From an uncultured bacterium (GTDB taxonomy: Bacteria > DYJV01): a stretch of DNA of 64,000 bases. Location of the stretch: the NCBI GenBank assembly GCA_964492825.1, contig CAZBLP010000001.1, positions 11,054 to 75,053 of the forward strand. The letters are read 5' to 3'. Below the pieces are notes generated by a model. That model saw only the letters and a list, made by a program, of their open reading frames with translations. It ran no database searches and was not told where the DNA came from. Numbering within the stretch: position 1 is the first letter of the stretch; every line of letters starts with the position of its first letter. Shown here one piece after another: positions 3,388 through 57,753 of this stretch. Made by a program: the position numbers and the translations under genes.

Positions 3388-6598
<3,211 letters not shown>

Positions 6599-6639: not shown

Positions 6640-8538
6640 ATGAAAAATAAAAGCTTTGACCCTGCTGGACAAAAAATGATTGATTTTGGAGAAAAAAATA
6701 ATTTTGAATTAGTATGGGACAGATTGGAAAAGCAGCAGCCTCAATGTGGTTTTGGAGAACTTGGAGTATGTTGCAGAAACTGTGTTATGGGACCGTGCAG
6801 AATCGACCCTTTTGGCGAAGGACCTGACAAAGGTGTTTGCGGTGCCACTGCTGATACAATTGTTGCAAGAAATATAATAAGAATGATTGCAGCAGGTGCA
6901 GCAGCACATTCTGACCATGGCAGAAGGCCGGCTATGCTTTTAAAAGAGGTAGGAGAAAAGGTTAATAAAAATTATGAAATAAAAGATGAAACCAAGTTAT
7001 TAAATGTTGCTAAAAAATTAGGAATTAAGACAGAGAACAAGGATAAATTTCAATTGGCAAAAGAAGTTGCTGAAACAGCACTTAATGATTATGGCAAGCA
7101 GGATTCAAAACCTATAAAATTTTTGGAATCTTATGCTCCGAGATTAACAGATAAACTTTTGAATTTAGAGAAAATTCTCTATGAAAAAACAGGTAAAATA
7201 ATGGGGCTGGTTCCGAGAAATATTGACAGGGAAATTGTTGATATTATGCATAGGACGCATATTGGTGTTGATAATGACCCGTTATCTCTGATTTTGCAGG
7301 GCATCAGAGCATCTCTTGGAGATGGCTGGGGTGGCTCGTTAATTGCCACTGAATGTCAGGATATTTTATTTGGTACACCAAAAGTACACTCTGTTTATGC
7401 AAATTTAGGTGTTCTTTCAGAAAATGAGGTTAACATTGTTATTCATGGTCATGAGCCGGTACTGTCTGAAAAAATAGTTGAGGTAGCTTTAAGAAAAGAA
7501 TCAATTGAGTATGCAAAGTCAAAAGGTGCAGATGGTATAAATATTGCCGGCATGTGCTGTACAGGTAATGAAATACTTATGAGACATAATGTGCCAATAG
7601 CCGGAAACGAGCTTCATCAAGAGCTTGCAGTTTTAACAGGTGCTGTAGAAGCAATGATAGTTGATGTGCAATGTATTTTTCCTGCTCTTTCAAATCTTAC
7701 AAAATGTTTTCATACAAAGTTTATTTCCACAAGTGATCAGGCAATGTTTCCAGGAGCTGAGCATATTCAATTTGAAGAAGAGAAAGCAAATGAGATTGCA
7801 GAAAAAATAGTGAAAATAGCAATTGAGAATTTTGCAAACAGAGACAAAAACAGAATAAACATTCCTGAAGAGCAAAACGAAGCTGTTGTAGGATTTAGTG
7901 TTGAGCAGATTTTAGAAGCTTTAGGCGGTACACCGGAACCTCTGATTAATGCAATAAAAGATGGTCAAATAAAAGGAATTGTAGGTATAGTAGGATGTAA
8001 TAATCCTAAAGTGGAGCAGGATTATTATCATATAAATCTTGCAAAAGAGCTTATAAAAAGGGATATTTTAGTAATAGGCACAGGATGCTGGGCAATTGCA
8101 ATGGCAAAAGCAGGGCTTTTATCTGTTGATGCTGCACAAAATGCAGGAGAAGGATTAAAGTCTGTATGCAATGCTTTGAAAATACCTCCTTTTTTACACA
8201 TGGGAAGTTGTGTTGATTGCAGCAGAATGCTTGTAATAGCTTGTGCTGTTGCTGATACATTAAATGTAGAAATAAGTGACCTGCCTCTATTTGGCTCAGC
8301 TCCTGAATGGATGACTGAAAAAGCTGTTTCAATAGGTACATACTTTGTTGCAAGTGGTATCCCTGTCCATCTTTGGCCGATTCCTCCTGTATTAGGCGGG
8401 AAGGAAGTTGTTAAAATTTTAACTGAAACAGCAAAAGATGTATTTGGCGGCTATTTTGTTATTGAAAGTGATATTAAAAAAGCCGTGGATATAATGGAAT
8501 CTCATATTTTAGAGAAAAGAAAAGCATTGGGAATTTAA
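6640..8538 (+). CDS. cooS: Anaerobic Ni-dependent carbon monoxide dehydrogenase catalytic subunit (CooS)
   Basis: N-terminal CGFGELGVCCRNCVMGPCRI matches the CODH B/D-cluster Cys motif. Internal HGHEPVLSE and GMCCTGNEILMRHNVP match C-cluster regions. Length is about 630 aa. Hcp was considered and rejected. Confidence 0.8.
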   Translation: MKNKSFDPAGQKMIDFGEKNNFELVWDRLEKQQPQCGFGELGVCCRNCVMGPCRIDPFGEGPDKGVCGATADTIVARNIIRMIAAGAAAHSDHGRRPAMLLKEVGEKVNKNYEIKDETKLLNVAKKLGIKTENKDKFQLAKEVAETALNDYGKQDSKPIKFLESYAPRLTDKLLNLEKILYEKTGKIMGLVPRNIDREIVDIMHRTHIGVDNDPLSLILQGIRASLGDGWGGSLIATECQDILFGTPKVHSVYANLGVLSENEVNIVIHGHEPVLSEKIVEVALRKESIEYAKSKGADGINIAGMCCTGNEILMRHNVPIAGNELHQELAVLTGAVEAMIVDVQCIFPALSNLTKCFHTKFISTSDQAMFPGAEHIQFEEEKANEIAEKIVKIAIENFANRDKNRINIPEEQNEAVVGFSVEQILEALGGTPEPLINAIKDGQIKGIVGIVGCNNPKVEQDYYHINLAKELIKRDILVIGTGCWAIAMAKAGLLSVDAAQNAGEGLKSVCNALKIPPFLHMGSCVDCSRMLVIACAVADTLNVEISDLPLFGSAPEWMTEKAVSIGTYFVASGIPVHLWPIPPVLGGKEVVKILTETAKDVFGGYFVIESDIKKAVDIMESHILEKRKALGI

Positions 8539-8540
8539 AA

Positions 8541-9719
8541 ATGAAAAGATACGTTATTATAGGCTGCGGCAATGCAGGTGTTAAAGCTGCTGTTAAAATT
8601 AAGGAAATTGAAAAACATGCCCTGATTACCGTAATTACAGACGAAGATTATCCTCCATACTGCAGATGTTTGTTAACGTATTTTATTGAAAACAAGATTA
8701 ATGACGAGTTTTTATTTCAAGAAGGCAGGCAGATAATTAAAAATAACAATATTGAATTTATACAAAATGTTAAAGTCCAAGAGGTAGATGCTAATAAATC
8801 GGAGATTTTTCTTAGCAATAACCGAAAATTAGGTTTTGATAAATTGTTAATTTCCACAGGAGGAGAGCCATCTTTGCCAAAGTTCAAATACAACGAAGGT
8901 TTGCCGGTGTTTACTTTAAGAAAGTTTGAAGATGCGTTGAAAATCAAGGATGCTTTTAAAAAAGGTGACACTGCTGTAATTGAAGGAGGCGGGCTTGTAA
9001 GCCTTAAAACTCTTCTTGCATTAAATGAAATCGGAGTTAAAATCAAATGGATAGTTAAATCTGAGTATATTTTATCATTTTTGGTTGACAGGTTTTCAGC
9101 TGAATTTATTAAATCATTGATTGTTGAAAATAAAGGTATTGAAATTTACAATAACGAATCTATTGAGGATGTTACAAAAACAAATAGTGCTCTTATTGTT
9201 AAAACAGATAAAGGCAGAGAAATTAAAGCTTCAGGTGTTGTTGTAGGAAAGGGCGTTAAACCAAAAAAATTAAATTTTAACAGAGCTGTTAAATTTGAGG
9301 ATGGGTATATTACAAATGAATACCTTGAAACAACTGTTCCCAATATATATGCTGCTGGAGATTGCAATATTGTGTTTGATGTTGCACATGAAAAGAATTG
9401 GAAAGTCCCTCTTTGGCCATTAGCAGGAGAGCAGGGGATTTGCGCTGCAATTAACATGGTAAAAGGAAATAGTATGAAATACATTTCTGCTGTACCTGTA
9501 AACTCATTTTCAATATTTGAAAACAAGATTATTGCAGGTGGAAAGAAAAAACTCAATCCTGATGAAGTGGACTTATTTTCTGAAAAAGTGTATATAAATA
9601 AAGGGAAAAAAATTTTTAAAAAATTTATTTACAAATATGACCAATTAAAAGGATATGTTTTGGTAAATGATATTTCAAGTGCCGGGAAATATTATTGGAA
9701 AGTAAAGAATAGCAATTAA
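8541..9719 (+). CDS. FAD-dependent pyridine nucleotide-disulfide oxidoreductase (NAD(P)H oxidoreductase partner of CooS/CooF)
   Basis: N-terminal dinucleotide-binding GxGxxG (IIGCGNAGVKAA) and a second Rossmann motif near residue 150, with the late AAGDC motif. Starts 3 nt after the cooS stop. Confidence 0.7.
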   Translation: MKRYVIIGCGNAGVKAAVKIKEIEKHALITVITDEDYPPYCRCLLTYFIENKINDEFLFQEGRQIIKNNNIEFIQNVKVQEVDANKSEIFLSNNRKLGFDKLLISTGGEPSLPKFKYNEGLPVFTLRKFEDALKIKDAFKKGDTAVIEGGGLVSLKTLLALNEIGVKIKWIVKSEYILSFLVDRFSAEFIKSLIVENKGIEIYNNESIEDVTKTNSALIVKTDKGREIKASGVVVGKGVKPKKLNFNRAVKFEDGYITNEYLETTVPNIYAAGDCNIVFDVAHEKNWKVPLWPLAGEQGICAAINMVKGNSMKYISAVPVNSFSIFENKIIAGGKKKLNPDEVDLFSEKVYINKGKKIFKKFIYKYDQLKGYVLVNDISSAGKYYWKVKNSN

Positions 9720-9732
9720 ACGGAGGCATAAA

Positions 9733-10224
9733 ATGAAAGAAATCACAATAGATATATCAAAATGCACAGGTTGCAAATCTTGTGAAATTGCATGCAGAGT
9801 AGAACATTCTTTAAGCAAAAATCTTTTTACAGCTATTTCAGAAGATAAACTTCCTCAAAAAAGGGTCTTTGTAGAAACAAACGGAATTAATAAAATTCCT
9901 ATTCAGTGCAGGAATTGCGAGGACAGTCCATGCATTACAGCATGTATGACAGGAGCAATGCACAAAGACAGCAGAGGGATTGCAATTTGCGATGAATACA
10001 AATGTATAGGCTGTTTTATGTGTATAATGGTATGTCCTTTTGGAGTAATAAATATCAGCAGGTATGAAAAAAAGGTTCTGAAATGTGACAGATGCCCTGA
10101 CAGGGATATACCTGCATGTGTGAATGCCTGTCCAACAGGAGCAATAAAATATGAAGAGGTTGATGAATTTGTATATAACAAAAGAAAAGGATTTGTTAAC
10201 AGTATTGAGCTAAGTAGCTTTTGA
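9733..10224 (+). CDS. cooF: CooF-like polyferredoxin (multiple 4Fe-4S clusters)
   Basis: 163 aa with four CxxCxxCxxxCP-like motifs: CTGCKSCEIAC, CRNCEDSPCITAC, CIGCFMCIMVCP, CDRCPDRDIPACVNACP. Confidence 0.75.
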   Translation: MKEITIDISKCTGCKSCEIACRVEHSLSKNLFTAISEDKLPQKRVFVETNGINKIPIQCRNCEDSPCITACMTGAMHKDSRGIAICDEYKCIGCFMCIMVCPFGVINISRYEKKVLKCDRCPDRDIPACVNACPTGAIKYEEVDEFVYNKRKGFVNSIELSSF

Positions 10225-10599: not shown

Positions 10600-12465
10600 A
10601 TGTTTCAAATAGATGAATATAAAAGAAAATTAATAGATTTTAAAAGTTTTTTAGAGCTGTTTAAGAATGGAGATTCCATATTTATTCATAGCGGTGCTGC
10701 TGAACCTTATGTTTTGCTTCAAATGTTGTCAGAATCAAACCTTGTTGATTTGGACTTTTACCAGCTATATTCCATAAGAAATTCTAATTTCTCAAAGGAA
10801 AAGTTATTTGAAAATCATAATTACAGAAATTTTTTTGTAAGTGAGGAGTCAAAATCAGCCACTCATAAAGGAATAGTGGATTATGTTCCTATTAATCTTT
10901 CCCAGATTCCGCTTCTTTTTGACCAACACAGAATAGCTTTGGATTTTGCTTTGATTCAGGTATCAAAACCTGATAACAACGGTTTTTTCAGTCTTGGAAC
11001 AAATGTGGATATTTCAAAATCAGCAGTGAAAAATGCCATGAAAGTTGTTGCACAGGTTAATTTCAATATGCCAAGGACATTGGGAGATTCTTTTATACAT
11101 CTTAAAGATATAGATTATATTATTGAGCATGACAGTGATTTACTTGAATTTAATCAGGAAGAGGAAGATTTTGAAAGAGCTTTAAAAGCAGCTGAAAATG
11201 CAGCAACTATTGTGGATAACTTCAGTACCATTCAGATAGGTTTTGGCAATACTACAAAATTAGTAATTAAAATGCTTTTGGAGCATAGAGGATTAGGTGT
11301 GCATTCTGAAATATTTTATGATGATTTTGTTGATTTAATCAGAAACGGCAATATTACATGTAACAGGAAAACCTTGAATACTGATAAAGTAATTGTTAGT
11401 TTTGTTCATGGAAGCAAAAAAAGTTATGAGTTTATAGATAACAATCCTTTTGTAGAATTTCACCCTGTGGATTATACTAATAATCCTCAAATAATATCAC
11501 AAAATAAAAATTTTATTTCCATTAATTCTGCATTTGAAGTTGACCTTTCAGGTCAGGTAAATGCAGAAGCTATAGGATATAAAATAGAGAGCGGTATAGG
11601 CGGATTTGTGGAATTTAATTTTGGAGCTACTTTTTCAAGAGGCGGCAAATCAATTATTGTATTGCCCTCTATTTCCAAAGACGGTAAAAAATCCCGTATA
11701 GTTCCCGAAATAAAGGAGGGGTTTGGCGTTACGCTCTCAAAGGCAAATGTTCATTATATTGTTACAGAATTCGGTTTGGCATATTTGTTTGGGAAAACCT
11801 TAAGAGAAAGAGCACTGGCTCTTATTAGCATAGCTCATCCTGATTTTAGAGAAGAATTATTTGATTTCGCCAAAAAGAAAGGTATAATTCCCTCAAATCA
11901 AATAATGCCTCTTATGGGTACAAACTATCCGAAGCAGTATGAAACTTATTTTACAACCAAATCAGGAATAAAACTATTTGTCAGGCCTTTAAAATCTGAA
12001 GATGAAGATAACTTGAGAAGATTACTCTATTCATATTCGCTTGATAAGATTTATCAAAGATTTTTTTGCTTTATTAGAGATTTTACTCATGAAAGAACCC
12101 AATGTATGGTTAATATCAATTATGACTATGATATGGCTCTCGGATGTTTTTTTGAAGATGAGCTTGTTGCCACTGCAGGTTATTTTTATGACAGTTCCGA
12201 GCATATAGGAGAGATTGCTTTTATGGTAAAAAAAGAGTATCAGGGTTATGGTATTGCAACTTTTTTAAATGATTATCTTAAGAAAATAGCAGAAGAAAGA
12301 GGTTTGCGAGGTTTTAAAGCTTATGTTTTAAGGCAGAATAGTGCTATGCTTAATGTGTTTCACAAATCTGGTTATCAGCTGAAAGTTAAAGATATTTCAG
12401 ATATGAATATTTTTGAGCTTGAATTATACTTTGAATATAAAAAACAAATAAACAATAAGTTTTAA
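10600..12465 (+). CDS. Acetyl-CoA hydrolase/transferase family domain fused to a C-terminal GNAT N-acetyltransferase domain
   Basis: The N-terminal 430 aa or so resemble acetyl-CoA hydrolase / 4-hydroxybutyrate CoA-transferase family proteins. The C-terminal 150 aa or so carry the GNAT motif A region (EIAFMVKKEYQGYGIATFL). Confidence 0.7.
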   Translation: MFQIDEYKRKLIDFKSFLELFKNGDSIFIHSGAAEPYVLLQMLSESNLVDLDFYQLYSIRNSNFSKEKLFENHNYRNFFVSEESKSATHKGIVDYVPINLSQIPLLFDQHRIALDFALIQVSKPDNNGFFSLGTNVDISKSAVKNAMKVVAQVNFNMPRTLGDSFIHLKDIDYIIEHDSDLLEFNQEEEDFERALKAAENAATIVDNFSTIQIGFGNTTKLVIKMLLEHRGLGVHSEIFYDDFVDLIRNGNITCNRKTLNTDKVIVSFVHGSKKSYEFIDNNPFVEFHPVDYTNNPQIISQNKNFISINSAFEVDLSGQVNAEAIGYKIESGIGGFVEFNFGATFSRGGKSIIVLPSISKDGKKSRIVPEIKEGFGVTLSKANVHYIVTEFGLAYLFGKTLRERALALISIAHPDFREELFDFAKKKGIIPSNQIMPLMGTNYPKQYETYFTTKSGIKLFVRPLKSEDEDNLRRLLYSYSLDKIYQRFFCFIRDFTHERTQCMVNINYDYDMALGCFFEDELVATAGYFYDSSEHIGEIAFMVKKEYQGYGIATFLNDYLKKIAEERGLRGFKAYVLRQNSAMLNVFHKSGYQLKVKDISDMNIFELELYFEYKKQINNKF

Positions 12466-19757: not shown

Positions 19758-21173
19758 TTATTTAACAAGAATTTTGATTAAAGTGCCTTTTTTCAAATAT
19801 GTATCCATATTAATACCATTTAAAACAACTAATTTTTTTATTAACTCTTTATCTTTTACATTGTAATACTTCACAATATTTGCAAATGTGCCTGAAATAG
19901 GAAGTTTGAATATTTTTATTCTGTATGGTTTTTTATTGAGCTTATCAACTTCTGTTAATGTTGAAAAGCTCATTGGAACAGATATATATCTTTCATTGTA
20001 GTTTTTATAAACACAGTCAAATTGAAAAATTCTTTTGTCTTTTAAAATGAAATATGAAATTATTACCAAGTTATTCTTTCTTAGGATTGATTTTGTTTTA
20101 ATAGCGGAAAATCCGTTAATGGAAATATTTTTTTCATAAAAGGTTCTTATATCTGAATTAGCCACATATTTATTAACAGCAGTATGAAGATTGTTATATT
20201 TATTTAAATGAAAAATAATGATACTGTCATTTTTTTTACTAATTAATAACACTTTAGACGGAGTATTTTCCACTTTAAAAACCGGATTAACATAGAATTT
20301 AAATTTTAGAACAGGATGATAAAAATAATTTTTTTCCACATATCCTTGCTGAGGGTCTTTGCCGAATATTAAACCATTAATCTTTTTTAAATATCTGTTT
20401 CTGTTAATTGTAAATTTTTTTCTATTAAATTTACGTTGAATATCTTTTGTCTCTTTTATCACTTTTCTGATTCTGTTCTTAGGTGAAGGATGGGTGGAAA
20501 ACCAGCTTGGAAGCCCTGAGGATTTCTTGCTTTCCAATCTTTTTAATGTGTTAAAAAAGTTTCCAAGCTCTTTTGAATCATATCCTGCCTGTGTAGAATA
20601 ATAGACTCCCAAATAGTCAGCCTGATTTTCATCATCTCTGCTGAACTTTAAAAAAAGCAGTTTAACTCCTGTTGATATTAAATTGGAAAGGCTGTTTATT
20701 TCAGGGCTAACAATAGAGCCTACAGTAAGTCCCAGGTTAAACAACATAGCTTCACTCATCTGTTTGGCACTGTGTCTTGCATTTATATGACCTAACTCAT
20801 GGCCTAATATTCCTGCTAACTGGGCTTCGTTGTTTATATAGGCAAGAATACCTCTTGTAATATAAACATATCCTCCTGGCAGTGCAAATGCGTTTACATC
20901 AGTAGAGTCCAGAATCCTAAAATAGTATGAAATATCATGGCGGTGTACATGGCGGACAAGTTTATAACCTATTTCATTAATGTAATTTTTTAAATTAGAG
21001 TTATTATACAATCCATATTGTGCAATTATTTGTTTATCGTTTTTTTTGCCAATTGCTATTTCCTGGGATCTTGAAATGAGCATTAGCTCTTTTCTTCCAG
21101 TAACAGGATTGGTGGCACATGAAGATAAAAATATAAAAAGCATTACTGCTAATGAAATTTTTTTTAAATTCAT
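19758..21173 (-). CDS. M48-family Zn-metallopeptidase lipoprotein with C-terminal LysM domain
   Basis: HELGHINARH HExxH motif; predicted lipoprotein signal MNLKKISLAVMLFIFLSSC; LysM-like C-terminus (YNVKDKELIKKLVVLNGINMDTYLKKGTLIKILV). Start moved to MNLKK because GTGGAG RBS is upstream. Confidence 0.65.
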   Translation of the reverse strand: MNLKKISLAVMLFIFLSSCATNPVTGRKELMLISRSQEIAIGKKNDKQIIAQYGLYNNSNLKNYINEIGYKLVRHVHRHDISYYFRILDSTDVNAFALPGGYVYITRGILAYINNEAQLAGILGHELGHINARHSAKQMSEAMLFNLGLTVGSIVSPEINSLSNLISTGVKLLFLKFSRDDENQADYLGVYYSTQAGYDSKELGNFFNTLKRLESKKSSGLPSWFSTHPSPKNRIRKVIKETKDIQRKFNRKKFTINRNRYLKKINGLIFGKDPQQGYVEKNYFYHPVLKFKFYVNPVFKVENTPSKVLLISKKNDSIIIFHLNKYNNLHTAVNKYVANSDIRTFYEKNISINGFSAIKTKSILRKNNLVIISYFILKDKRIFQFDCVYKNYNERYISVPMSFSTLTEVDKLNKKPYRIKIFKLPISGTFANIVKYYNVKDKELIKKLVVLNGINMDTYLKKGTLIKILVK

Positions 21174-21266
21174 TGCTCCACAAGCTCCTTTTGTGAAATT
21201 CAATTTTAAAAAATATATATAAAACCTCACTTATTTTCAATAAATATTTTCTTATTTTTTATTAAT

Positions 21267-21295
21267 TTGATTTTTTGTTAATTTTTTTGTATAAT
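21267..21295 (+). promoter_or_regulatory. Sigma-70-type promoter: TTGATT-17 bp-TATAAT, upstream of the synthase-Cache operon
   Basis: Read directly: -35 TTGATT (21267-21272), 17-nt spacer, -10 TATAAT (21290-21295). An imperfect hairpin AAAGCACAAG-ctctaat-CTTGCACTTT follows in the 5' UTR. Confidence 0.5.
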
Positions 21296-21371
21296 CGCCT
21301 ATTAATTATAAAATCCAAATTCAAAGCACAAGCTCTAATCTTGCACTTTGAACCAAAAAGGAGGATGATTT

Positions 21372-23207
21372 ATGCCCAAAAAGAAGGTAATTAACATTAA
21401 CAAGTTTTTAAAACAGGATAGCAGTAAATTTCAGTTAATTGACACAAAAGAGCCTAACCTGTTCAGAGAGTATTTCCCTTATACTGAAATTCCAAGGATA
21501 AAATTTGATAATACCATTGTTTTACCTTCAATGCCTGATGAAATTTTTATTACTGACACAACTTTCAGAGATGGTCAGCAGGCGAGACCTCCCTATAGTG
21601 CAGAGCAAATTGCTCATATTTTTGAACTGTTACACAGATTAGGCGGGCCTAACGGAGTTATTAGAAAATCAGAGTTTTTTCTATATTCAGACAAAGATAA
21701 AAAAGCTGTTGAATTATGCAAAGAAAAAGGATTTGAATTTCCAATAATTACAGGTTGGATAAGGGCTCATAAAGAAGATTTTAAGCTTGTTAAAGAAATG
21801 GAGTTGAAAGAAACAGGGATTTTAACTTCTGTTTCAGATTATCACATTTTTTTAAAAATGCATAAAACAAGAAAAGAAATTTTAAAGGATTATTTGGAAA
21901 TTATTGAAGCAGCAATAGAAAACAACATTGTTCCGAGATGCCATTTTGAAGATATTACAAGGGCTGATATTTTTGGTTTTGTAATACCATTTACCCAGAA
22001 ATTAATGAAAATACAGGAGCAGACTAAAATCCCAATTCTTATTAGATTGTGTGATACTATGGGGTATGGTGTGCCTTTTCCCAATGCAGCACTGCCAAGA
22101 GGTGTTCCAAAGCTTGTAAGGACTTTTGTAGATGAAGTGGGAGTTCCGCCAGAGAATCTCGAATGGCACGGTCATAATGATTTTCACAAAGTTTTAATAA
22201 ATGCCACTACTGCATGGCTTTACGGTTGTGCCGCTGCTAATGGTACGATTTTCGGTTTTGGCGAAAGAACGGGCAATCCGCCTATAGAAGCTCTGATAAT
22301 TGACTATATAAGTATTGCCGGTAATAACAATGCAATAGACACTACTGTTATTACTGAAATAAAAAATTATTTTGAACAGGAAATAGGTTTTCATATTCCG
22401 CCTAATTATCCATTTGTTGGTTCTGAATTTAATATTACAAGAGCAGGTATACATGCAGACGGTTTAATTAAAAATGAGGAAATTTACAATGTTTTTGATA
22501 CTACCAAAATTTTAAACAGACCTCCTTCAGTGGCAATTAATGATAAATCAGGTGCAGCTGGAATTGCACATTGGATTAATTCCCATTTTGGTTTAACAGG
22601 AAATAAGGTTATTAGCAAACACCACCCAGGGGTACAAAAAATATTCAGAAAAGTTAATAAAATGTATGATCAAGGCAGGACTACCGCTCTTTCTTCTGAA
22701 GAAATGGAGAAACTTGTTAGAAAATACCTACCTGATTATTTTATCTCAGAATTTGACGTTATTAAGGAAAAAGCCAAATCAATTGCACAGAATATTATAG
22801 AAGCAATTGTTGAAAAAGAAGCATTTAAAAAGCTTGATGTGCCTAAAATTGAGGAAGAACTTAAAAATCTTCTTTTTGAAAACTCATTTATTCAGTTTGC
22901 TTATGTGGTTGATCTTGAAGGCAATCAAATTACCAGAAATATTACACAACTTTATGAAATGGATAAATATTCGATTAACTGGATTAGAGGCAATCTTGCA
23001 GACAGAGACTGGTTTATTAATCCTATAAAAACAGGGAAAATCTATGTATCAAACCTTTTTAATTCAAAAATCACCAATGATTTATGTTTAACTGTAAGTC
23101 ATCCTATATGGAATGATAAAGATGAGATGATAGCCATAATCGGACTTGATATTAAGTTTGAAACCTTATTGAAAATTGAAGAAAGCATAGATATTGAAAG
23201 GAGTTAA
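21372..23207 (+). CDS. HMGL-like 2-alkylmalate synthase (LeuA/CimA/homocitrate-synthase family) catalytic domain fused to a C-terminal Cache-like ligand-binding domain
   Basis: DRE-TIM metallolyase motifs DTTFRDGQQ and EWHGHNDFHKVLINATTA...GFGERTGN. The last 150 aa or so contain DRDWFINPIKTGKIYVSNLFNSKITNDLCLTVSHPIWNDKDEMIAIIGLDIKFETL, which matches the Cache/PDC-sensor consensus (DRPWY...TGKPYVS...TG.PVIT...P......G...GV.G.D..L). There is no TM segment and no LeuA_dimer-like C-terminus. Confidence 0.7.
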   Translation: MPKKKVININKFLKQDSSKFQLIDTKEPNLFREYFPYTEIPRIKFDNTIVLPSMPDEIFITDTTFRDGQQARPPYSAEQIAHIFELLHRLGGPNGVIRKSEFFLYSDKDKKAVELCKEKGFEFPIITGWIRAHKEDFKLVKEMELKETGILTSVSDYHIFLKMHKTRKEILKDYLEIIEAAIENNIVPRCHFEDITRADIFGFVIPFTQKLMKIQEQTKIPILIRLCDTMGYGVPFPNAALPRGVPKLVRTFVDEVGVPPENLEWHGHNDFHKVLINATTAWLYGCAAANGTIFGFGERTGNPPIEALIIDYISIAGNNNAIDTTVITEIKNYFEQEIGFHIPPNYPFVGSEFNITRAGIHADGLIKNEEIYNVFDTTKILNRPPSVAINDKSGAAGIAHWINSHFGLTGNKVISKHHPGVQKIFRKVNKMYDQGRTTALSSEEMEKLVRKYLPDYFISEFDVIKEKAKSIAQNIIEAIVEKEAFKKLDVPKIEEELKNLLFENSFIQFAYVVDLEGNQITRNITQLYEMDKYSINWIRGNLADRDWFINPIKTGKIYVSNLFNSKITNDLCLTVSHPIWNDKDEMIAIIGLDIKFETLLKIEESIDIERS

Positions 23208-23209
23208 TA

Positions 23210-24469
23210 ATGGGTATGACTCTTGTTGAGAAAATTATCAGTATGAATGCAGGTAAAAATGTTAAAGCAGGTGAGATAGTTATTACTCCTGTTTCAGCAT
23301 GTCTCACTCAAGATGGTACAGGCCCTTTGGCTGTTGATCAGATTAATAAACTTGGAGTGGAAAAAATAAAAAATCCAGATAGAACATATATGTTTATAGA
23401 TCATGCTTCGCCAAGTCCGAGAAAAGAACTTTCAAATGACCATATAAAGCTGAGAAATTTTGCAAAAAAAATGGGTGCTCATCTGTTTGATATTGGTGAT
23501 GGCGTATGTCACCAGGTTGTTGCAGAACAATTTTTAAATCCCGGAGATATTTTAATAGGCGCAGATTCTCATACCTGTACTGGCGGAGGTTTAGGAGCTT
23601 TCAGCACAGGTATGGGCTCAACAGATGTTGCAATAGGCATAGCTTACGGCAAAACTTGGCTCAGAGTTCCTGAAACAATTAAAATTGAAATAACAGGTAA
23701 ATTCAATAAAGGAGTTTTTGCAAAAGATCTTATTTTACATATAATCGGTGAAATCGGAGCTGACGGAGCCACATATAAAGCTCTTGAATTTACAGGAGAA
23801 GCTGTTGGAGATTTTCAAATGGCTGATAGGTTGACTCTTGCAAATATGGCTGTGGAAGCAGGAGCTAAATGCGGACTTTTCCCGTCAGATGAAATTACAA
23901 AAAAATACCTTGAAGATAAAGGCAGAGGTGAAAAATTTATAGAAATATTTCCTGATAATAATGCCACTTATGAAAGAATTTTAAAAATAGATTTAGCATT
24001 AATTGAACCAATGGTATCTTTTCCTCATACTGTTGACAATGTTAGAAAAGTTACTGATGAGGATTGTAAAAATGTGCCTGTGCACCAGGTTTTTATTGGT
24101 ACATGTACAAATGGAAGAATTGAAGATTTAAGAGTGGCAGCAGATATTTTAAAAGGTAAAAAGAGAGCCAATGGCACAAGATTAATAGTAACTCCAGCTT
24201 CAAGAGAAGTTTACGGACAGGCAATCAAAGAAGGGCTTCTTGCTATTTTTAATGATGCTGGTGCGTCTATTAATAATCCAGGTTGCGGTGCATGTGTCGG
24301 AGTGCATCAAGGTATTTTAGGTGACAATGAAAACTGCCTGTCAACTCAGAACAGGAATTTTCAAGGAAGAATGGGCAATGTTAATGCTAATATTTATCTT
24401 TGCTCTCCTGCTACAGCAGCGGCATCTGCAATAGAAGGCAAAATTACTGATCCGAGGAAATATTTTTAA
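23210..24469 (+). CDS. 3-isopropylmalate/homoaconitate dehydratase large subunit, archaeal-type (LeuC/HacA-like)
   Basis: 419 aa with the aconitase-family motifs GADSHT and FIGTCTNGRIEDL...PGCGACVG. Starts 3 nt after the synthase stop. No LeuD-like small subunit follows. Confidence 0.8.
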   Translation: MGMTLVEKIISMNAGKNVKAGEIVITPVSACLTQDGTGPLAVDQINKLGVEKIKNPDRTYMFIDHASPSPRKELSNDHIKLRNFAKKMGAHLFDIGDGVCHQVVAEQFLNPGDILIGADSHTCTGGGLGAFSTGMGSTDVAIGIAYGKTWLRVPETIKIEITGKFNKGVFAKDLILHIIGEIGADGATYKALEFTGEAVGDFQMADRLTLANMAVEAGAKCGLFPSDEITKKYLEDKGRGEKFIEIFPDNNATYERILKIDLALIEPMVSFPHTVDNVRKVTDEDCKNVPVHQVFIGTCTNGRIEDLRVAADILKGKKRANGTRLIVTPASREVYGQAIKEGLLAIFNDAGASINNPGCGACVGVHQGILGDNENCLSTQNRNFQGRMGNVNANIYLCSPATAAASAIEGKITDPRKYF

Positions 24470-24903
24470 TGCCGTACAAAATTTGGATTGAACATAACAG
24501 GCTAAATGCCAAATATAAAATAAGAAATTATCATATAGATTCTTACGGGCATGTTAACAATGCTGTTTATATTCAATTTTTAGAAGATGCCAGGACGGAT
24601 TTTTTTGATTTTCTCGGATTTTCTCTAAGCTATCTTGCAAAGCAAAACATTTTTATTTATATTACTGAGATTAATATCAAATATCTGAAACCGGGTTATC
24701 TTGATGATATAATTGTAGTAACAGCATCCATGTTAAAACATTCCAAAATAAGAATTACATGGTTGCAGGAGATATTCAAGGGTAATGAAAAATTAACTAC
24801 AGCTGCTGTAACAGGTGCTTTTATGAATAAAGAGAAAAAACCGATTAAAATACCAGATTTTGTTTTGACAGAAATGGAAAAAATCAGTTTGGCCAATCAA
24901 TGA
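24469..24903 (+). CDS. Hotdog-fold acyl-CoA thioesterase (YbgC/4HBT family)
   Basis: 144 aa with the YbgC-type motif DSYGHVNNAVYIQFLEDAR. Its start overlaps the LeuC-like stop (TAATG). Confidence 0.7.
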   Translation: MPYKIWIEHNRLNAKYKIRNYHIDSYGHVNNAVYIQFLEDARTDFFDFLGFSLSYLAKQNIFIYITEINIKYLKPGYLDDIIVVTASMLKHSKIRITWLQEIFKGNEKLTTAAVTGAFMNKEKKPIKIPDFVLTEMEKISLANQ

Positions 24904-26135
24904 GCGGTTACGGATATTTAATTTTAGGAATACTTTTTTTAATTGATATTTTTGAGATATATCTTAAATATTTGAATCTCAGGCAGATTAAAGTATTAAA
25001 GAAAAAATGCCCTGAAAATGTAACAGAGGTTTTTGAAAAAGATAAATTGGAAAAGGCTTTGAATTATCAGGAGGAAAAAGAGAGGCTTGATATTTTTTCA
25101 AAAATTGTTGTTATTCCTTTTTTCTACGGAATCTTTGTTATTAGCATTGTCCAATCTTATTCAAATATAATTAATAACTCTTTTTCCGGTGAATTTTCAA
25201 GGGCAATTATATTTTTCATATCTTTTATAATTTTTAATTACATTTTGTCCTTACCTTTTAATATATATGATACTTTTGTTATTGAAAAAAAGTATGGTTT
25301 TAATAAAATGACACCAGCTCTTTATATTAAAGATACTGTTATAAGCGGAATTATATCACTTGTTCTGATATCTGTTATTGTTTTTGCAATTGTAGGTTTT
25401 ATTAAAAATACCGGTAATCTGTGGTGGTTTTTAGGAGCTGTTTTTACCGCACTGTTTTCTTTTTTTATAACATATATCTATCCTACGTTTATAGCGCCGT
25501 TATTTAATAAGTTTGAGCCAATAGATAATGAAGATTTGAAAAAAGAAGTTTTTAATCTTTCAAATAAAGCGGAATTTCCACTTGATAAAATATATAAGAT
25601 GGATGCATCCAAAAGGTCAAGTCATTCAAATGCTTATTTTACAGGTTTTGGTAAAAAAAAGAGGATAGTTTTGTTTGATACATTACTTAAGAATCATTCC
25701 ATTTCTGAAATTTTGGCAATTTTAGCTCATGAAATTGGCCATTACAAATTGGGACATATAAAAAAAATGCTTTTTATATCAGTTGTTTTTATTTTTATTG
25801 GCTTTTTCTTTGCAGGTAGCATAATAGACCAGCAATTTATTTACAATGCTTTTGGTTTTTCAAAAACAATTTACATAGGATTATTTATATGCATGATACT
25901 TTTTGCACCTTTTAACTTTGTTATTCAGCCATTTTTAGCTTTTTTATCAAGAAAACATGAATTTGAAGCTGATAATTTTGCTGTTAAATTAATTGAAAAA
26001 AAAGATGTTATAATTAATACTTTAATTAAACTCTACAAAGATAATCTTGCAAATCCAATGCCACACAGGTTATATAAAGTTTTTTATTATTCACATCCAA
26101 CTTTATTAGAAAGAATTGAGGAGATAAAAAAATGA
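24900..26135 (+). CDS. Ste24-type CAAX prenyl protease homolog (M48A, multi-pass membrane)
   Basis: Strong regional similarity to ZMPSTE24/Ste24: RIVLFDTLL, HEIGHYKLGH (Ste24 HELGHWKLGH), YSHPTLLERI (Ste24 YSHPPLLERL). The N-terminal half is hydrophobic with multiple TM segments. Overlaps the thioesterase stop (ATGA). Confidence 0.75.
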   Translation: MSGYGYLILGILFLIDIFEIYLKYLNLRQIKVLKKKCPENVTEVFEKDKLEKALNYQEEKERLDIFSKIVVIPFFYGIFVISIVQSYSNIINNSFSGEFSRAIIFFISFIIFNYILSLPFNIYDTFVIEKKYGFNKMTPALYIKDTVISGIISLVLISVIVFAIVGFIKNTGNLWWFLGAVFTALFSFFITYIYPTFIAPLFNKFEPIDNEDLKKEVFNLSNKAEFPLDKIYKMDASKRSSHSNAYFTGFGKKKRIVLFDTLLKNHSISEILAILAHEIGHYKLGHIKKMLFISVVFIFIGFFFAGSIIDQQFIYNAFGFSKTIYIGLFICMILFAPFNFVIQPFLAFLSRKHEFEADNFAVKLIEKKDVIINTLIKLYKDNLANPMPHRLYKVFYYSHPTLLERIEEIKK

Positions 26136-27448
26136 AGAAATTTCTGTTAATAATTATCTGTATAATAGTTCTCGGTTTAGCTGGTTTTATTAGTTTTTCT
26201 CCAATGTTTGAGAGAGTTCCACCTGTTGTGAAAGTTTATAGTAATAATTCATACTGGAATTTAAAGAGCGGTTTAAAAATAGAAATAACAGATAATACTG
26301 GTATTAAATCTGTTGATATAAGATTTGACAGATTTACCATGCATAAAGATTGTAATGGCAAAAAAAAGTTGGTTATTAATTTGAAAATTCCAAGAAGGCT
26401 ACATCTTTCCGAAGGAAAACATATTTTGAAAATAACTGCAATTGATATTAGCAAATGGCAGGTTTTTGCAGGTAATATGACCAGAAAAAAAATTGCAATT
26501 TCAGTTGACAAAAGAAAACCTCTGTTAAATGTTTTATCTCATTCTTACGGTATAGGAAGAGGCGGAGCTGCTCTTGTTATTTTTAAAGCAACAGATAAAA
26601 ACCTTGACAAAAGTTTGGTGATTGTAAATGACAAATATACTTTTAAAGTTTTCCCATATAAAAAAAAGGGATATTTTATAACATTAATTTCATGGCCTGT
26701 TAAAGAGGAAAAGTTTAAAGCTGTTGTTGTTGCCAAAGATAAAGCTTCGAATAAGTCCATACAATATCTGAATTTTTTTCATAAGAAATATGTTTACAAA
26801 TTATCAAAAATTACCCTGAACCAAAATTTTTTAGATAATAAAGTAAAGGAAATCCTAAATTCAGCAGATTATGAAATTCCTGAAGATTTTCTTGCAAGGT
26901 TCAAGTTAATGAATGAAAATTTGAGAAATCAGAATGAAACAAAATTAGAAAATATTACAAGAAGTTTTCCTGTAAATCTTATAAATAATTTTAAAATAAT
27001 TCCATTTCATCCTTTGAAAAATGCAGCGAGAAAAGCATCATTTGGAGATCACAGGTATTACTTTTTCAATAATAAAAAAATAAGTGAATCATGGCACCTT
27101 GGAGTTGACCTTGCAAGTATTAAAAATGCACCTATAAAATTAAACAATAACGGTAAAGTTGTTTATGGAAAATTTACAGGAATATATGGCAATACTTTAA
27201 TTGTTTACCATGGTCTTGGACTCTATTCATTATATGCTCATTGTTCCACATTTTTGGTTTCTGAGGGAGCAGAGGTTAAGAAGGGCACTGTTATTGCCAA
27301 AACAGGTGCAACAGGTGCAGTATTCGGAGATCATCTGCACTTTGCAATTTTTATACAAGGCATTGAGTCTCAGCCCCTTGAATGGTTTGACCCTCACTGG
27401 ATAAAGGATAATATTGTTAAAGTAATGAACAGTGCATATATTGAATAG
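26132..27448 (+). CDS. M23/LytM-family peptidase with N-terminal membrane anchor and uncharacterised middle domain
   Basis: C-terminal M23 motifs HLGVDLAS and TGATGAVFGDHLHFAIF (HxxxD...HxH). N-terminal TM helix. Overlaps the upstream gene by 4 nt. Confidence 0.65.
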   Translation: MKKFLLIIICIIVLGLAGFISFSPMFERVPPVVKVYSNNSYWNLKSGLKIEITDNTGIKSVDIRFDRFTMHKDCNGKKKLVINLKIPRRLHLSEGKHILKITAIDISKWQVFAGNMTRKKIAISVDKRKPLLNVLSHSYGIGRGGAALVIFKATDKNLDKSLVIVNDKYTFKVFPYKKKGYFITLISWPVKEEKFKAVVVAKDKASNKSIQYLNFFHKKYVYKLSKITLNQNFLDNKVKEILNSADYEIPEDFLARFKLMNENLRNQNETKLENITRSFPVNLINNFKIIPFHPLKNAARKASFGDHRYYFFNNKKISESWHLGVDLASIKNAPIKLNNNGKVVYGKFTGIYGNTLIVYHGLGLYSLYAHCSTFLVSEGAEVKKGTVIAKTGATGAVFGDHLHFAIFIQGIESQPLEWFDPHWIKDNIVKVMNSAYIE

Positions 27449-27468: not shown

Positions 27469-27490
27469 GGGAGGCATTTTAATGCCTCCC
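27469..27490. terminator. Bidirectional terminator hairpin GGGAGGCA-ttttaa-TGCCTCCC between the convergent M23 and glyQ genes
   Basis: GC-rich perfect inverted repeat in an AT-rich intergenic region, followed by AAAACCTAAATTTATTTTTTT on the + strand. Confidence 0.55.
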
Positions 27491-29432: not shown

Positions 29433-32096
29433 CTATGAATACAGAATAGCTGCCTGAGCTGCTGCCAATCTTGCAATAGGAACTCTGTAAGGTGAACAGC
29501 TTACATAAGTCATGCCGATTTTATGGCAGAAATAAACAGATTCAGGGTCACCACCATGTTCACCGCAAATTCCAACTTTTAAATCAGGTCTTGTTGCTTT
29601 GCCTTTTTTAACCCCCATTTCCACTAATTGTCCCACTCCGTCAATATCAAGAGTTACAAAAGGGTCTTTTGGTAAAATTTTTATGTCAACATAATCCTTC
29701 AAGAATTTTCCTGCATCGTCCCTTGAAAAACCGAAAGTTGTCTGAGTTAAATCATTTGTACCAAAAGAGAAAAACTCTGCAAATCTTGCAATTTCATCAG
29801 CAGTTAATGCAGCTCTCGGTAATTCTATCATAGTGCCTACTTTGTATTCAATTTTAACATTGTAGGTATCAATTACTTCGTCAGCAACTCTGTTGGTCAT
29901 GTTTTTCAAAATTTCAAGTTCTTTATAAAGGCCTACCAGAGGAATCATAATTTCAGGTATAGCATCAATTCCTTCTTTTATACATTCGCAGGCTGCTTCC
30001 ATTATTGCCCTTACCTGCATTTCATAAATTTCAGGAAATGTTATTCCAAGCCTACATCCCCTATGACCTAACATTGGATTAAATTCATGCAATTTCTCAG
30101 ATAATTCTTTAATTTTTTCCACACTAACATTCATATTTTTTGCAACTTCCTGCATCTCTTTTTCTTCTTTTGGTAAAAATTCATGAAGAGGAGGGTCAAG
30201 AAGTCTTATAGTAACCGGCAATCCGTTCATTTCTTTAAAAATACCTTTAAAATCTTCTTTTTGATACGGTTTGACTTTTTCAAGAGCTTTTTCCCGCTCT
30301 TCTTTAGTTTCTGATAGAATCATTTCTCTTACAGCAATAATTCTGTCTCCTTCAAAGAACATATGCTCTGTTCTGCACAAGCCAATACCTTCTGCTCCGA
30401 ATTTTCTTGCTATTTCTGAATCATGAGGAGTATCAGCATTGGTTCTCACGCCTAACACTCTAACTTCATCAACCCATTTCATAAACTCACCAAATTCTCC
30501 TGTAAATTCCGGATTGATTCTTGGAACTTCTCCTTCAATTACTTCACCTGTGGAACCGTCCAGAGTTATAACATCTCCTTTTTTGAAAATTTTGCTGTTA
30601 ATTTTCATTTCCTGTTTCTCATTGTCAACACTTATTGCACTGCATCCTGAAACACAGCATTTTCCCATGCCTCTTGCAACAACAGCAGCATGTGATGTCA
30701 TACCACCTCTTGCAGTTAGAATTCCTTCTGCAGCATTCATTCCATGAATATCTTCAGGAGAAGTTTCTATTCTTACAAGAATGACTTTTTCACCTTTGCC
30801 TGCTAATTTTTCAGCCTCATCTGCACTAAATACTATTTTACCTGCAGCAGCACCTGGTGAAGCTGGTAATCCCCTGGCTATAACTTTTTTATCAGCTTTT
30901 GGATCAAGCATAGGATGGAGCAGTTGATCAAGCTGTGAAGGCTCAACACGCATTATAGCTTCTTTTTTATCAATTAATCCTTCTTTAACCATATCAACTG
31001 CTATTTTAACAGCTGCTTTTGCAGTTCGTTTGCCGTTTCTGGTTTGTAACATCCATAATTTGCCTTTTTCAATTGTAAATTCTATATCTTGCATATCACG
31101 GTAATGGTTTTCAAGTTTTAAATAAATTTCAACCAATTCTTTGTAAGATTCCGGCATTAACTGTTCCAATGTTGGCAGGTTTTTATTTTCATTATTTTTA
31201 GATGTTTCGTTAATAGGATTTGGAGTTCTGATTCCTGCAACAACATCTTCTCCCTGAGCATTAACAAGGAATTCTCCGAAAAATTTCTTTTCTCCTGTAG
31301 CCGGATCCCTGGTAAATGCAACACCTGTTGCAGAATCTTCACCTAAATTACCAAATACCATTGATTGAACATTTACAGCAGTACCCCATTCATCAGGTAT
31401 TCCATTTAATTTTCTATATGTAATAGCTCTTTGGTTGTTCCATGAGCCAAATACCGCACCTATTGATTCCCATAGCTGCTCTTCAGGGTTTTGCGGGAAA
31501 TCTTCTCCTGTTAGTTCTTTGTAAGTAATTTTTAAATTTACAACCAATTCCTTTAAATCATCAGCTGTTAATTCAGTGTCAAGTTTTACACCCCTTTTCT
31601 TTTTAATTTCTTCAAGAGGTTTTTCAAGTTTCTCAGAATCAATGCCTTTTACAACATTGCCGTACATTTGAATAAATCTTCTGTAACTATCAAAACTGAA
31701 CCTTTCGTTTCCTGCCTGTTTGGCAAGGCCTTGAACTGATTTGTCATTAAGACCGAGATTAAGAACAGTATCCATCATACCTGGCATTGAAACTCTTGCA
31801 CCTGACCTTACAGAAAACAGAAGAGGATTCTCAATACTTCCGAATTTTTTTCCTGTAATTTCTTCAACATTTTTTATAGCTTCTTTAACCTGTGATTCCA
31901 ATTCATCAGGATATTTATTGTTATTTTTATAATAATAAGTACAAACTTCAGTGGATATTGTAAAACCTGGAGGGACAGGAATACCAATATTAGCCATTTC
32001 AGCAAGGTTAGCACCTTTGCCGCCTAATAACTCTTTCATTTTGCCACTGCCATCTGCAGTTTTATTGCCGAAAAAATAAACATACTTTTCCATCAT
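29433..32096 (-). CDS. ppdK: Pyruvate, phosphate dikinase
   Basis: 887 aa with PEP-utilising enzyme regions, including the phospho-His region [15 protein letters not shown] and the C-terminal PEP-binding TIM barrel. Confidence 0.9.
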
Positions 32097-45700: not shown

Positions 45701-46474
45701 TTGTTCAGTGCATTTAGAAATTATTATCTTGATAAATTAACCAAAGTTATAGTTTTCGGAGGAGACGGAGCATTTTACGATATTGGTAATCAAGGACTAA
45801 ACTTTGCTCTTGGAGAAAATCAGGATATTACATGGATAGTCTACAATAACGAAGCTTATATGAATACAGGTTTTCAAAAATCAGGAGCAAGCAGGTTTGG
45901 CTCCAACAGGTCAACCTCGCCTTATGGTCTTGAATTAAAAGGAAAAGATGATTTTCATAGAGAATTGGTTGCCCAGGCAATGGCAATACCAAAAGTTTAT
46001 GCAGCAAGATTATCTCTTGCAAATCCTTTACATTGTTTGAAAATATTAAAAGAAGCTATAGCGTATAAAGGTCCTTCATTAATAGAAATTTTTTCACCGT
46101 GTCCTACAGGCCAGGGTTTGGCTACAGATGATATTGGCATTGAAGTTTCAAAAATGATGGTAGAATCAAGAGCTTGGCCAATAGTGGTGAGAAAACCGTA
46201 CAATGGTATTGATATTACTGCTAATCCTGATTATGATAAAATTTATCCTGAACCAAGAAAAATTAAGGATAAATTAATTGAGCCTGCAAAATTTAAAGAC
46301 ATAGTCAATCTTATGGGGCAATTTATAGGAGACCAGGAAACAATTAAAAAAATAGTCAAAGTTAATGAAAGGCAAAATATATACAGATGGAACTGGTTAC
46401 AATACCTTGCTGGAGTTGCAGATAAAGTTCTAACTGAAGAAGAAATAGAAGAAATAATATCTGACAGATTGTAG
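42725..46474 (+). CDS. Pyruvate:ferredoxin (flavodoxin) oxidoreductase-family single-chain 2-oxoacid oxidoreductase (NifJ/PFOR paralog)
   Basis: 1249 aa with the PFOR domain order: YPITPS domain I, gamma domain (KYVQTSAKYGASRKGG), two 4Fe-4S motifs (CINCGLCIASCP, CKGCGVCVKSCK), TPP domain (GGDGAFYDIGNQGL). Strong RBS AAGGAG 6 nt before the ATG. About 45-aa N-terminal extension relative to canonical PFOR. Confidence 0.8.
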   Translation: MKKEMDFNYDFNFRFNGKYLFNADYFIENLKKEIGEENFQKMQKTEEFINDGNSAVVNVLKRLVTGLVGYPITPSTPIAEGMAKAYSDGTINVFGEKMFYFQPESELGAMSFLEGAASQGGRFADNTSSQGLTYKIKNMYSVAGKRLPVLMTVQTREVNKGSLSIHNSHTDLYAARGTGWVLLMTSNNQEMHNLIPLAFKTIEQRQIMLPAIVAGEGFLKSHSIENIKILSDEFLKYFVGAPNRLFQPDFDNPVLMGTFTDINVTMPTQIKQDIAIRNVKKYFKATMAVMNKILGTNLDVVENYRTEDAEFVVVMMGAGAETMKDVVDYYRDKGIAVGLVRPVLFYPVCTEEIAYGIQSSKVITVIEKVAEANEKYLYRDVNEACKLININPEILSGIYGLGNQNLSIEDCCGLIENMISEKKSDKFFVGISGHNCIESVKKEDFVSKEVGMTFIGIGAEGVKTSQETLAKIIAKSGKYVQTSAKYGASRKGGMVVMNARVSDEPIRNCSNLTEIGILSIFNDKYFIDNSLLPFIKSLKPGGYLIINSVKTFKEIFQGTTKEIQNIFNEFKFNIVLIDATTHVLKVLKRNLPGTPILGVINKLTKILPEEEFLSIFKEELTAKFGDKKPHLVDKNLTLLKVPFDVIGTKFKLENGRKNENASLDSNKENPKKEKLIFNIPEETYLEDDELATLDFPNLYKEKYFDKFVNDVLKPFQQGESVPWEKFLNIVPAKTSKFNNASLIGTHLPVFNADKCINCGLCIASCPDNALRVTLINEDEFNNLSDSNKKLFKEVNEKRFLGTSGKLDRKYYFNINVVENYCKGCGVCVKSCKFNALQMEDKNRLNRDESFISTEVSNLDRSDEVFDKVSGNKILQKIMLKYSGQKFLPGGHSLCPGCGEGIIENLVFTAAEMVRTDTSIIEETYKSIPQLLKRSHEKGVRHMLKKGFYIYTINATGCAEVSCLSNPYNSRIYNSGHYGFGTASAAALGTRISLFSAFRNYYLDKLTKVIVFGGDGAFYDIGNQGLNFALGENQDITWIVYNNEAYMNTGFQKSGASRFGSNRSTSPYGLELKGKDDFHRELVAQAMAIPKVYAARLSLANPLHCLKILKEAIAYKGPSLIEIFSPCPTGQGLATDDIGIEVSKMMVESRAWPIVVRKPYNGIDITANPDYDKIYPEPRKIKDKLIEPAKFKDIVNLMGQFIGDQETIKKIVKVNERQNIYRWNWLQYLAGVADKVLTEEEIEEIISDRL

Positions 46475-53254: not shown

Positions 53255-53281
53255 TTCATATTTTCATCAGGATTTTTTATT

Positions 53282-54130: not shown

Positions 54131-54198
54131 AAAGGACAGTTTTTTTTATTATACTTTGCTTTGTTTCTGTTTCAGCTCTTTTTGCTGAAAATTTTCAG

Positions 54199-56011: not shown

Positions 56012-56034
56012 TACTCAATGAACTGGAGTGGTTA

Positions 56035-57741: not shown

Positions 57742-57753
57742 TAGAGGTATAAG

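Follow-up and report, generated by a model that had tools for sequence, protein, structure and literature searches.

We analyzed a 64,000-nt stretch of DNA from an uncultured bacterium (assembly GCA_964492825.1, contig CAZBLP010000001.1, positions 11,054 to 75,053; hereafter the window, with a GC content of ~31%), in which five plus-strand open reading frames (ORFs) lie between positions 21,372 and 27,448. The ORFs sit exactly where a preliminary description of this DNA had placed them, and its observation is confirmed, while its interpretation, in which an alkylmalate synthase of unspecified product carries a Cache-like sensor and stands in some relation to membrane proteases, is supported in part. 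We find that the first gene encodes a long-form Re-citrate synthase (Re-CS), as judged from its sequence, and we are fairly confident that the block as a whole combines Re-CS with a probable aconitase as an entry into citrate metabolism, most likely regulated through a Cache domain, with a conserved thioesterase and with two peptidases as passengers. The genes, and the parts of the first protein, are as follows (aa, amino acids):

21372..23207, + strand: long-form Re-citrate synthase, 611 aa, assigned by identity to SYN_02536 and CKL_0973
21546..22367, + strand: HMGL-like/DRE-TIM catalytic domain, aa 59-332 (Pfam PF00682, 99 bits)
22734..22880, + strand: helical linker and N-terminal Cache helices, aa 455-503, from AlphaFold2 (AF2) secondary structure
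22881..23183, + strand: cytoplasmic single Cache/PDC module, aa 504-604, with conserved R545, W547, F548, F563, S565 and D593
23210..24469, + strand: LeuC/HacA-family large subunit of the aconitase superfamily, 419 aa, probably an aconitase large subunit (PRK00402; homologs in tricarboxylic acid cycle clusters)
24469..24903, + strand: YbgC/FadM-family hotdog acyl-CoA thioesterase, 144 aa (TIGR00051, 78.7 bits against a cutoff of 68.7)
24900..26135, + strand: Ste24-type M48A integral-membrane zinc metalloprotease, 411 aa (PF16491 and PF01435)
26132..27448, + strand: membrane-anchored M23 peptidoglycan peptidase, Pgp6-like, 438 aa (PF01551)

The 611-aa protein aligned with SYN_02536 of Syntrophus aciditrophicus over residues 2-606 at 55% identity and 74% positives, and with CKL_0973 of Clostridium kluyveri over residues 13-455 at 48% identity. 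The first of these alignments takes in the Cache region, where SYN_02536 carries the motifs DREWF, TGKLHVTD, TGALCFTVSEPI and FGVDIRVEDL. SYN_02536 was reportedly described as a Re-CS by Kim et al. in 2013 (J Bacteriol 195:1689), and CKL_0973 is said to have been described as one by Li et al. in 2007 (J Bacteriol 189:4299). Both sequences were taken from Table S1 of PMC12016533, where they stand as two biochemically characterised Re-CSs, and a few optical character recognition errors in them leave the identities above slightly underestimated. Because of this orthology to characterised enzymes, we conclude that gene 1 encodes, on the sequence evidence, a long-form Re-CS (EC 2.3.3.3), and the earlier label of an alkylmalate synthase is not supported.

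The DRE-TIM catalytic domain that had been proposed for this protein was confirmed by the match to PF00682 and by the motifs DTTFRDGQQ, HGHND and GERTGN, which are invariant across 45 homologs, as is an N-terminal EPNL..FPY.EV signature. All 18 NCBIfam models for LeuA, CimA, NifV and homocitrate synthase (HCS) scored below their equivalog cutoffs (best 131 bits against 485), the LeuA, CimA and NifV scores lying 4-10 times under the cutoffs, and LeuA_dimer (PF08502) was not matched in the protein at E ≤ 0.1 in Pfam. Its closest solved structures are CimA, HCS and isopropylmalate synthase (E ~1e-21), and no solved Re-CS structure occurred among the structure matches. The protein shares with LeuA and CimA a superfamily and an architecture in which a Claisen-condensing TIM barrel is followed by a C-terminal domain. 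In LeuA and CimA this C-terminal domain binds small molecules and gives feedback inhibition, whereas the C-terminal fold of the window protein is unrelated and of the Cache/PDC type. SYN_02536 belongs to the same length class and has the EPNL..FPY signature, the HMGL/DRE-TIM domain, the helical linker and the C-terminal Cache domain, with the motifs DR.WF ... TG.LC.TVS.PI ... G.DI common to both proteins; it differs in that the window gene belongs to another, vent lineage, stands ahead of genes for a LeuC-like protein, a thioesterase and two peptidases, and encodes Phe at one pocket position described below. The C. kluyveri enzyme resembles the window protein in the catalytic region but stops at about residue 450, without a Cache domain.

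The fusion of this enzyme to a Cache domain is a known and widespread family of anaerobes, with thousands of proteins of ~604 aa, of which the window protein is one new member. A search of a 5.8-billion-protein collection gave 8000 matches, of which the best 120 all combined HMGL with Cache at ~604 aa and at least 59% identity, and scanning the GTDB species, each represented by one genome, yielded at least 594 stretches that encode relatives. The Cache region was covered in 75 of the 80 best of these stretches, from Thermodesulfobacteriota (Syntrophales, Desulfovibrio, Desulfobacterales), Nitrospirota, Omnitrophota, Elusimicrobiota, Spirochaetota, Armatimonadota and Lentisphaerota; the other 5 of the 80 (L080-L084), from Binatia, Auribacterota and similar groups, lack it. 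The preliminary description would have been refuted, by its own account, if the fusion were already a well-populated, annotated family of known function, and the fusion proved to be such a family, with a characterised, Cache-tailed member in S. aciditrophicus. Public records name the homologs 'citrate (Re)-synthase' (several, from JGI), 'isopropylmalate/homocitrate/citramalate synthase' or 'cache domain-containing protein', so that the family is still misnamed in part, including as 'isopropylmalate synthase'. Six homologs (P0012, P0040, P0060, P0080, P0081 and P0100) are named 'histone-lysine N-methyltransferase' or 'triose-phosphate isomerase', which are evident propagated misannotations.

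A Cache/PDC fold in the place of the LeuA regulatory domain, as had been proposed, was borne out by a match of residues 528-599 to MCP-like_PDC_1 (PF22673; 42.9 bits against a gathering cutoff of 27), together with the lack of a LeuA_dimer match; dCache_1 matched the protein under its cutoff (33.9 bits against 45). The claimed absence of a transmembrane (TM) segment also held, as the maximum 19-residue Kyte-Doolittle mean of the protein is 0.92 and no hydrophobic segment was found in it. The full-length AF2 model had a mean confidence (pLDDT) of 70 with poor barrel loops and was not used for interdomain geometry, and the C-terminal domain was modelled separately. The model of this domain has the long N-terminal helix, five-stranded sheet and flanking helices of the PDC fold, and a linker of ~50 helical residues, with helices at 460-480 and 490-503, separates it from the catalytic domain.

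Aligning a profile of the domain with solved structures placed R545 at R131 of KinD and R126 of PctA, W547 and F548 at PctA W128 and Y129, F563 at PctA Y144, and D593 at PctA D173. KinD R131 is the residue changed in the R131A entries of this pyruvate-binding sensor. In amino-acid dCache domains R126 and W128 contact the carboxylate of the ligand, its amino group is held by Y144 and D173, and the AA_motif of dCache_1AA sensors consists of Y121, R126, W128, Y144 and D173 in PctA numbering (PMC8915833). Among 74 Cache-bearing Re-CS homologs from diverse phyla, W547, F548, S565 and D593 were kept in all and R545 in 70, while position 563 is Tyr in 60 of the 74 and Phe in the window protein. This conservation is the pattern expected of a pocket that functions in binding a carboxylate, possibly an amino acid, and small-molecule, possibly amino-acid, allostery through the Cache domain is plausible. 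Since the Cache domain stands where LeuA and CimA have their regulatory domain, product feedback or feed-forward control is the most economical hypothesis, and citrate synthesis would most likely be controlled allosterically by a metabolite of this branch, a carboxylate or an amino acid, for example glutamate, 2-oxoglutarate or citrate.

The setting of this Cache module in the cytoplasm is uncommon. In a census of Cache domains 78% were extracellular, the outputs throughout were signalling ones, and Diacid_rec and YkuI_C were the only principally intracellular families (PMC4822843). An exhaustive phmmer search with the domain returned only 287 cluster representatives, and the nearest relatives outside Re-CS were chemoreceptors that end in the Cache domain, with the cytoplasmic MCPsignal domain preceding it (P0295, P0301, P0304, P0310, P0314, P0317 and P0400). 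From this position after a signalling domain, we infer that the Re-CS tail falls in a small cytoplasmic subclade of Cache domains. Compared with the sensors KinD (4jgo, pyruvate), PctA/Tlp3 (amino acids), DctB/CitA (di- and tricarboxylates) and the cytoplasmic YkuI_C (2bas), the Re-CS tail differs in having neither flanking TM helices nor a signalling output, in being fused to an enzyme, and in being a single module and not a dCache. In the library searched, no paper linking citrate synthase with a Cache domain was found. If the sensory interpretation is true, this is a Cache domain coupled to an enzyme and not to a signalling output, and Cache biology would extend from signalling receptors to direct enzyme allostery; with near-invariant pocket residues in a family that spans hundreds of species, the tail is an inexpensive and well-defined target for ligand screening.

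The second gene had been described as an archaeal-type LeuC, and the 419-aa protein did reach the full-length subfamily models in NCBIfam (PRK00402, 576.8 against 385; hacA_fam, 571.2 against 385.7). It fell under the equivalog cutoffs of LEU2 (482.8 against 610.65) and HacA_Meth (468 against 550). Homologs at 57-69% identity lie directly 3′ of Cache-bearing Re-CS genes in other phyla, and in five loci the order is Re-CS, LeuC-like gene, an Aconitase_C small subunit of ~165 aa and isocitrate dehydrogenase (IDH), which passes the NADP-IDH equivalog cutoff (666 against 567.3). In a locus from Aminicenantes the large and small subunits are followed by malate dehydrogenase (MDH), fumarase and SucCD (succinyl-CoA synthetase). 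The large and small subunits of these tricarboxylic acid (TCA) cycle clusters show the same pattern of LeuC, LeuD and HacA scores below cutoff as the window gene. The cluster coordinates are L012:4470-7414, L016:9769-12700, L021:8922-11943, L035:9771-12662 and L090:6001-9150 for the five loci with IDH, and L088:6001-11448 for Aminicenantes. We conclude from these conserved operons in other phyla that gene 2 most likely encodes the larger partner in a two-subunit aconitase of LeuCD type, a better reading of its homologs in TCA clusters than the dehydratase of an unspecified pathway proposed before.

The swivel-domain partner is needed for catalysis in the aconitase superfamily, as the structures of aconitase and isopropylmalate isomerase make plain, so the small subunit must be encoded elsewhere in the genome. 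The report that the window lacks LeuD was confirmed, in that tblastn found no LeuD-like small subunit, IDH or MDH there; no leuD, leuB or leuA lies in the window. The archaeal LeuCD/HacAB systems of Methanocaldococcus jannaschii (4nqy, 4kp2) are alike in that gene 2 is a full-length member of their subfamily, and they differ from it in that gene 2 scores under the LeuC and HacA cutoffs, its clade has the TCA cycle as its context and its partner is not adjacent. A literature search for two-subunit or heterodimeric aconitase returned nothing relevant. A LeuCD-type aconitase that is named 'isopropylmalate dehydratase' can make TCA reconstructions of anaerobes seem to lack aconitase, and such mis-naming may explain the 'missing aconitase' of some of them (for example PMC3971608).

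We next considered the genes downstream within the vent lineage, defined here by a LeuC-like identity of 74-100%. Re-CS, the LeuC-like gene and the thioesterase are conserved together in all six Re-CS-bearing loci of the lineage (the window, L092, L086, L087, L093 and L091), the thioesterase orthologs being 58-82% identical (L086:11262-11690, L087:5249-5677, L091:7264-7710, L092:7260-7691, L093:5117-5554). The thioesterase lies directly after the LeuC-like gene in this lineage, in the slot that the aconitase small subunit occupies elsewhere. Characterised Re-CS enzymes release CoA themselves, so no helper would be expected for citryl-CoA hydrolysis, and Re-CS chemistry does not explain why a hotdog thioesterase is conserved as the third gene in this lineage.

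The peptidases were of the families that had been named. The M48 protein has several hydrophobic segments, a five-helix N domain and an HExxH catalytic domain (PF16491, 155 bits; PF01435, 146 bits), and it matched human ZMPSTE24 at E 6.6e-70 and yeast Ste24p at E 1.8e-57; the M23 protein has the PF01551 domain and an N-terminal hydrophobic anchor at residues 1-27, and missed the Pgp6 cutoff of NCBIfam NF052529 over a full-length alignment (504.7 against 600). The M48-M23 pair is present in three of the six lineage loci, the window, L092 and L091, and is absent from L086, L087, L093 and all 80 loci outside the lineage. A one-off juxtaposition was ruled out by the recurrence of the block in L091 and in L092, where the flanking genes differ on both sides. 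A gene for a Peptidase_M99 (Csd4/Pgp1-type carboxypeptidase) is inserted in L091 between the thioesterase and M48-M23 (L091:7728-11753), which suggests that the genes further downstream belong together in a module for peptidoglycan trimming or cell shape. The core unit is thus synthase, hydro-lyase and thioesterase, with M48 and M23, a module related to peptidoglycan or the membrane, as probably co-transcribed passengers in part of the lineage. Of the suggested link between proteases and synthase, the recurrence in two relatives stands, the association is confined to part of one lineage, and the loci compared gave no evidence for a metabolic link.

The source organism is a deep lineage from vents. 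Identical contigs occur in ERZ940667 and in JGI 3300041922 / 3300007771, with a hydrothermal vent as the source, and LigA (window 4559-6598) has ~20 metagenomic relatives at 61-78% identity, is ~52% identical to that of named Firmicutes, Syntrophorhabdaceae and Thermodesulfobacteria, and has no named relative above ~53%. We take the organism to be diderm because the window encodes LptE, and to have the profile of a strict anaerobe because the window encodes a CooS-type CO dehydrogenase, a 1249-aa pyruvate:ferredoxin oxidoreductase (42725-46474), a pyruvate, phosphate dikinase (29433-32096) and a molybdenum hydroxylase. Re-CS is expected in strict anaerobes (PMC12016533; PMC8027424), in which it feeds an incomplete oxidative TCA branch (PMC8027424; PMC12016533). 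Genes 1 and 2 would accordingly open the oxidative branch of a TCA cycle that is incomplete in this strictly anaerobic vent bacterium, gene 1 forming citrate from acetyl-CoA and oxaloacetate (EC 2.3.3.3) and gene 2, with a small subunit encoded elsewhere, converting citrate to isocitrate. In L093 (6905-11115) Re-CS, the LeuC-like gene and the thioesterase are followed by an HTH regulator and then by subunits of a 2-oxoacid:ferredoxin oxidoreductase and an FAD/Fe-S oxidoreductase; these oxidoreductases are further TCA-type context. An apparent novelty thus becomes ordinary central metabolism, in which an anaerobe uses Re-CS and aconitase to supply the synthesis of 2-oxoglutarate and glutamate, and what remains of interest is the cytoplasmic Cache module, a two-subunit aconitase that is probably mis-annotated, and a thioesterase specific to the lineage. 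More specifically, we tentatively propose, as a possibility somewhat short of an even chance, that the Cache domain is a cytoplasmic metabolite sensor directly gating a central-metabolic enzyme and that a large LeuCD clade, spread over anaerobic phyla, is the missing aconitase of the TCA cycle, in the vent lineage with a non-adjacent small subunit and a conserved hotdog thioesterase.

Several points weigh against Re-CS and aconitase as a Cache-regulated pair. Re-face stereospecificity is not readable from sequence, so the Re-CS activity of the 611-aa protein is a predicted one. No LeuD-like gene stands beside the LeuC-like gene in any of the nine loci of the vent lineage, and because the small subunit is not adjacent there the aconitase assignment rests on other phyla; this missing subunit is the weakest link of the aconitase assignment, and the 419-aa gene could serve leucine biosynthesis also or instead. 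The AA_motif is incomplete in the window protein, with the Y121 equivalent unaligned and the Y144 equivalent a Phe, and the Cache domain could be purely structural.

Alternatives were also weighed. A novel alkylmalate (2-alkylmalate/citramalate/homocitrate-like) synthase that acts with the dehydratase in a new pathway, one whose function is linked to the membrane proteases, would fit a catalytic domain within the LeuA/CimA/HCS superfamily and a five-gene block that recurs in L092 and, with M99 added, in L091. We consider this highly improbable in view of the full-length orthology to two characterised Re-CSs, of conserved partners in other phyla that are an aconitase small subunit and NADP-IDH, and of the lack of M48 and M23 from three lineage loci and from all 80 loci outside the lineage. 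That gene 2 is a genuine LeuC (isopropylmalate/citramalate isomerase) or a dual-purpose large subunit, placed beside Re-CS for reasons unrelated to aconitase, appears improbable to us. Close homologs bear the name '3-isopropylmalate dehydratase large subunit' from the NCBI annotation pipeline (PGAP), the M. jannaschii isopropylmalate/citramalate isomerase large subunit is the closest solved structure (E 7e-121), an ortholog stands alone, without Re-CS, in L085, L094 and L095, and the vent lineage has the small subunit adjacent nowhere; but the score lies under the LEU2 equivalog cutoff, and the 57-69% homologs have IDH, MDH, fumarase and SucCD, rather than leuA or leuB, as their cluster neighbours.

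A stronger case can be made for a Cache module that serves structure or oligomerisation and binds no small molecule, replacing only the dimer-forming role of the C-terminal domain of LeuA. Cache N-terminal helices often make dimer interfaces, as is generally known, members of Binatia, Auribacterota and other groups have forms that lack the domain, and the Cache-less C. kluyveri enzyme is active alone (as cited in PMC12016533). We nonetheless regard a purely structural role as rather unlikely, as the residues of the KinD/PctA pocket are the most conserved of the domain, which is expected for ligand binding and not for a scaffold.

We also examined the sequences that flank and join the five genes, and found the following features:

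21267..21295, + strand: sigma-70-like promoter TTGATT-17-TATAAT, 10/12 matches, the top-scoring site
21318..21354, no strand assigned: imperfect inverted repeat of 15 pairs in the 5′ leader, after the -10 element and before the ribosome-binding site (RBS)
27469..27490, no strand assigned: GC-rich hairpin GGGAGGCAT-TTTA-ATGCCTCCC, read directly from the sequence

The promoter that had been reported was located at these positions; its TTGATT...TGTATAAT motif recurs ahead of the orthologous gene in both L086 and L087, and promoter-like sites are common in this AT-rich region (48 observed against 33 expected). An RBS, GGAGG, lies upstream of the Re-CS start at 21360-21364. The genes are joined by a 2-nt gap, a 1-nt overlap and then two 4-nt ATGA overlaps, and their co-transcription, as suggested earlier, is judged probable. 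The hairpin at 27469-27490 lies between the convergent M23 and glyQ genes and closes the five-gene block, and it is a likely terminator common to both. For the leader repeat at 21318-21354 the RNA fold was no better than that of shuffled sequences (z -0.85), and the repeat was not found in L086 or L087, lying within a ~55-nt stretch that these relatives lack. A riboswitch or attenuator was ruled out on both counts, and the repeat is probably non-functional or species-specific, and could be an operator or a remnant. An Rfam search of the window gave a tRNA as its sole match.

Other genes of the window were noted in passing. At 6640-10224 (+ strand) the gene for the CooS-type CO dehydrogenase (632 aa, of the Prismane family) precedes those for an FAD/NAD oxidoreductase and a 4Fe-4S ferredoxin. 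At 10600-12465 (+ strand), near genes of acetyl-CoA metabolism, a 621-aa protein joins an acetyl-CoA hydrolase/transferase (PF02550 and PF13336) to a C-terminal GNAT domain, which is an unusual fusion. A Bat/MoxR-type cluster of MoxR AAA, DUF58, a 277-aa ORF, VWA, VWA-TPR and BatD occupies 52274-59463 (+ strand), in the part of the window with the lowest GC content, ~25-27%. A second M48 peptidase of 490 aa, with a lipoprotein-like N-terminus, is encoded at 19758-21230 (- strand), divergent from the Re-CS promoter region, so that two unrelated M48 genes lie ~4 kb apart at the Re-CS locus.

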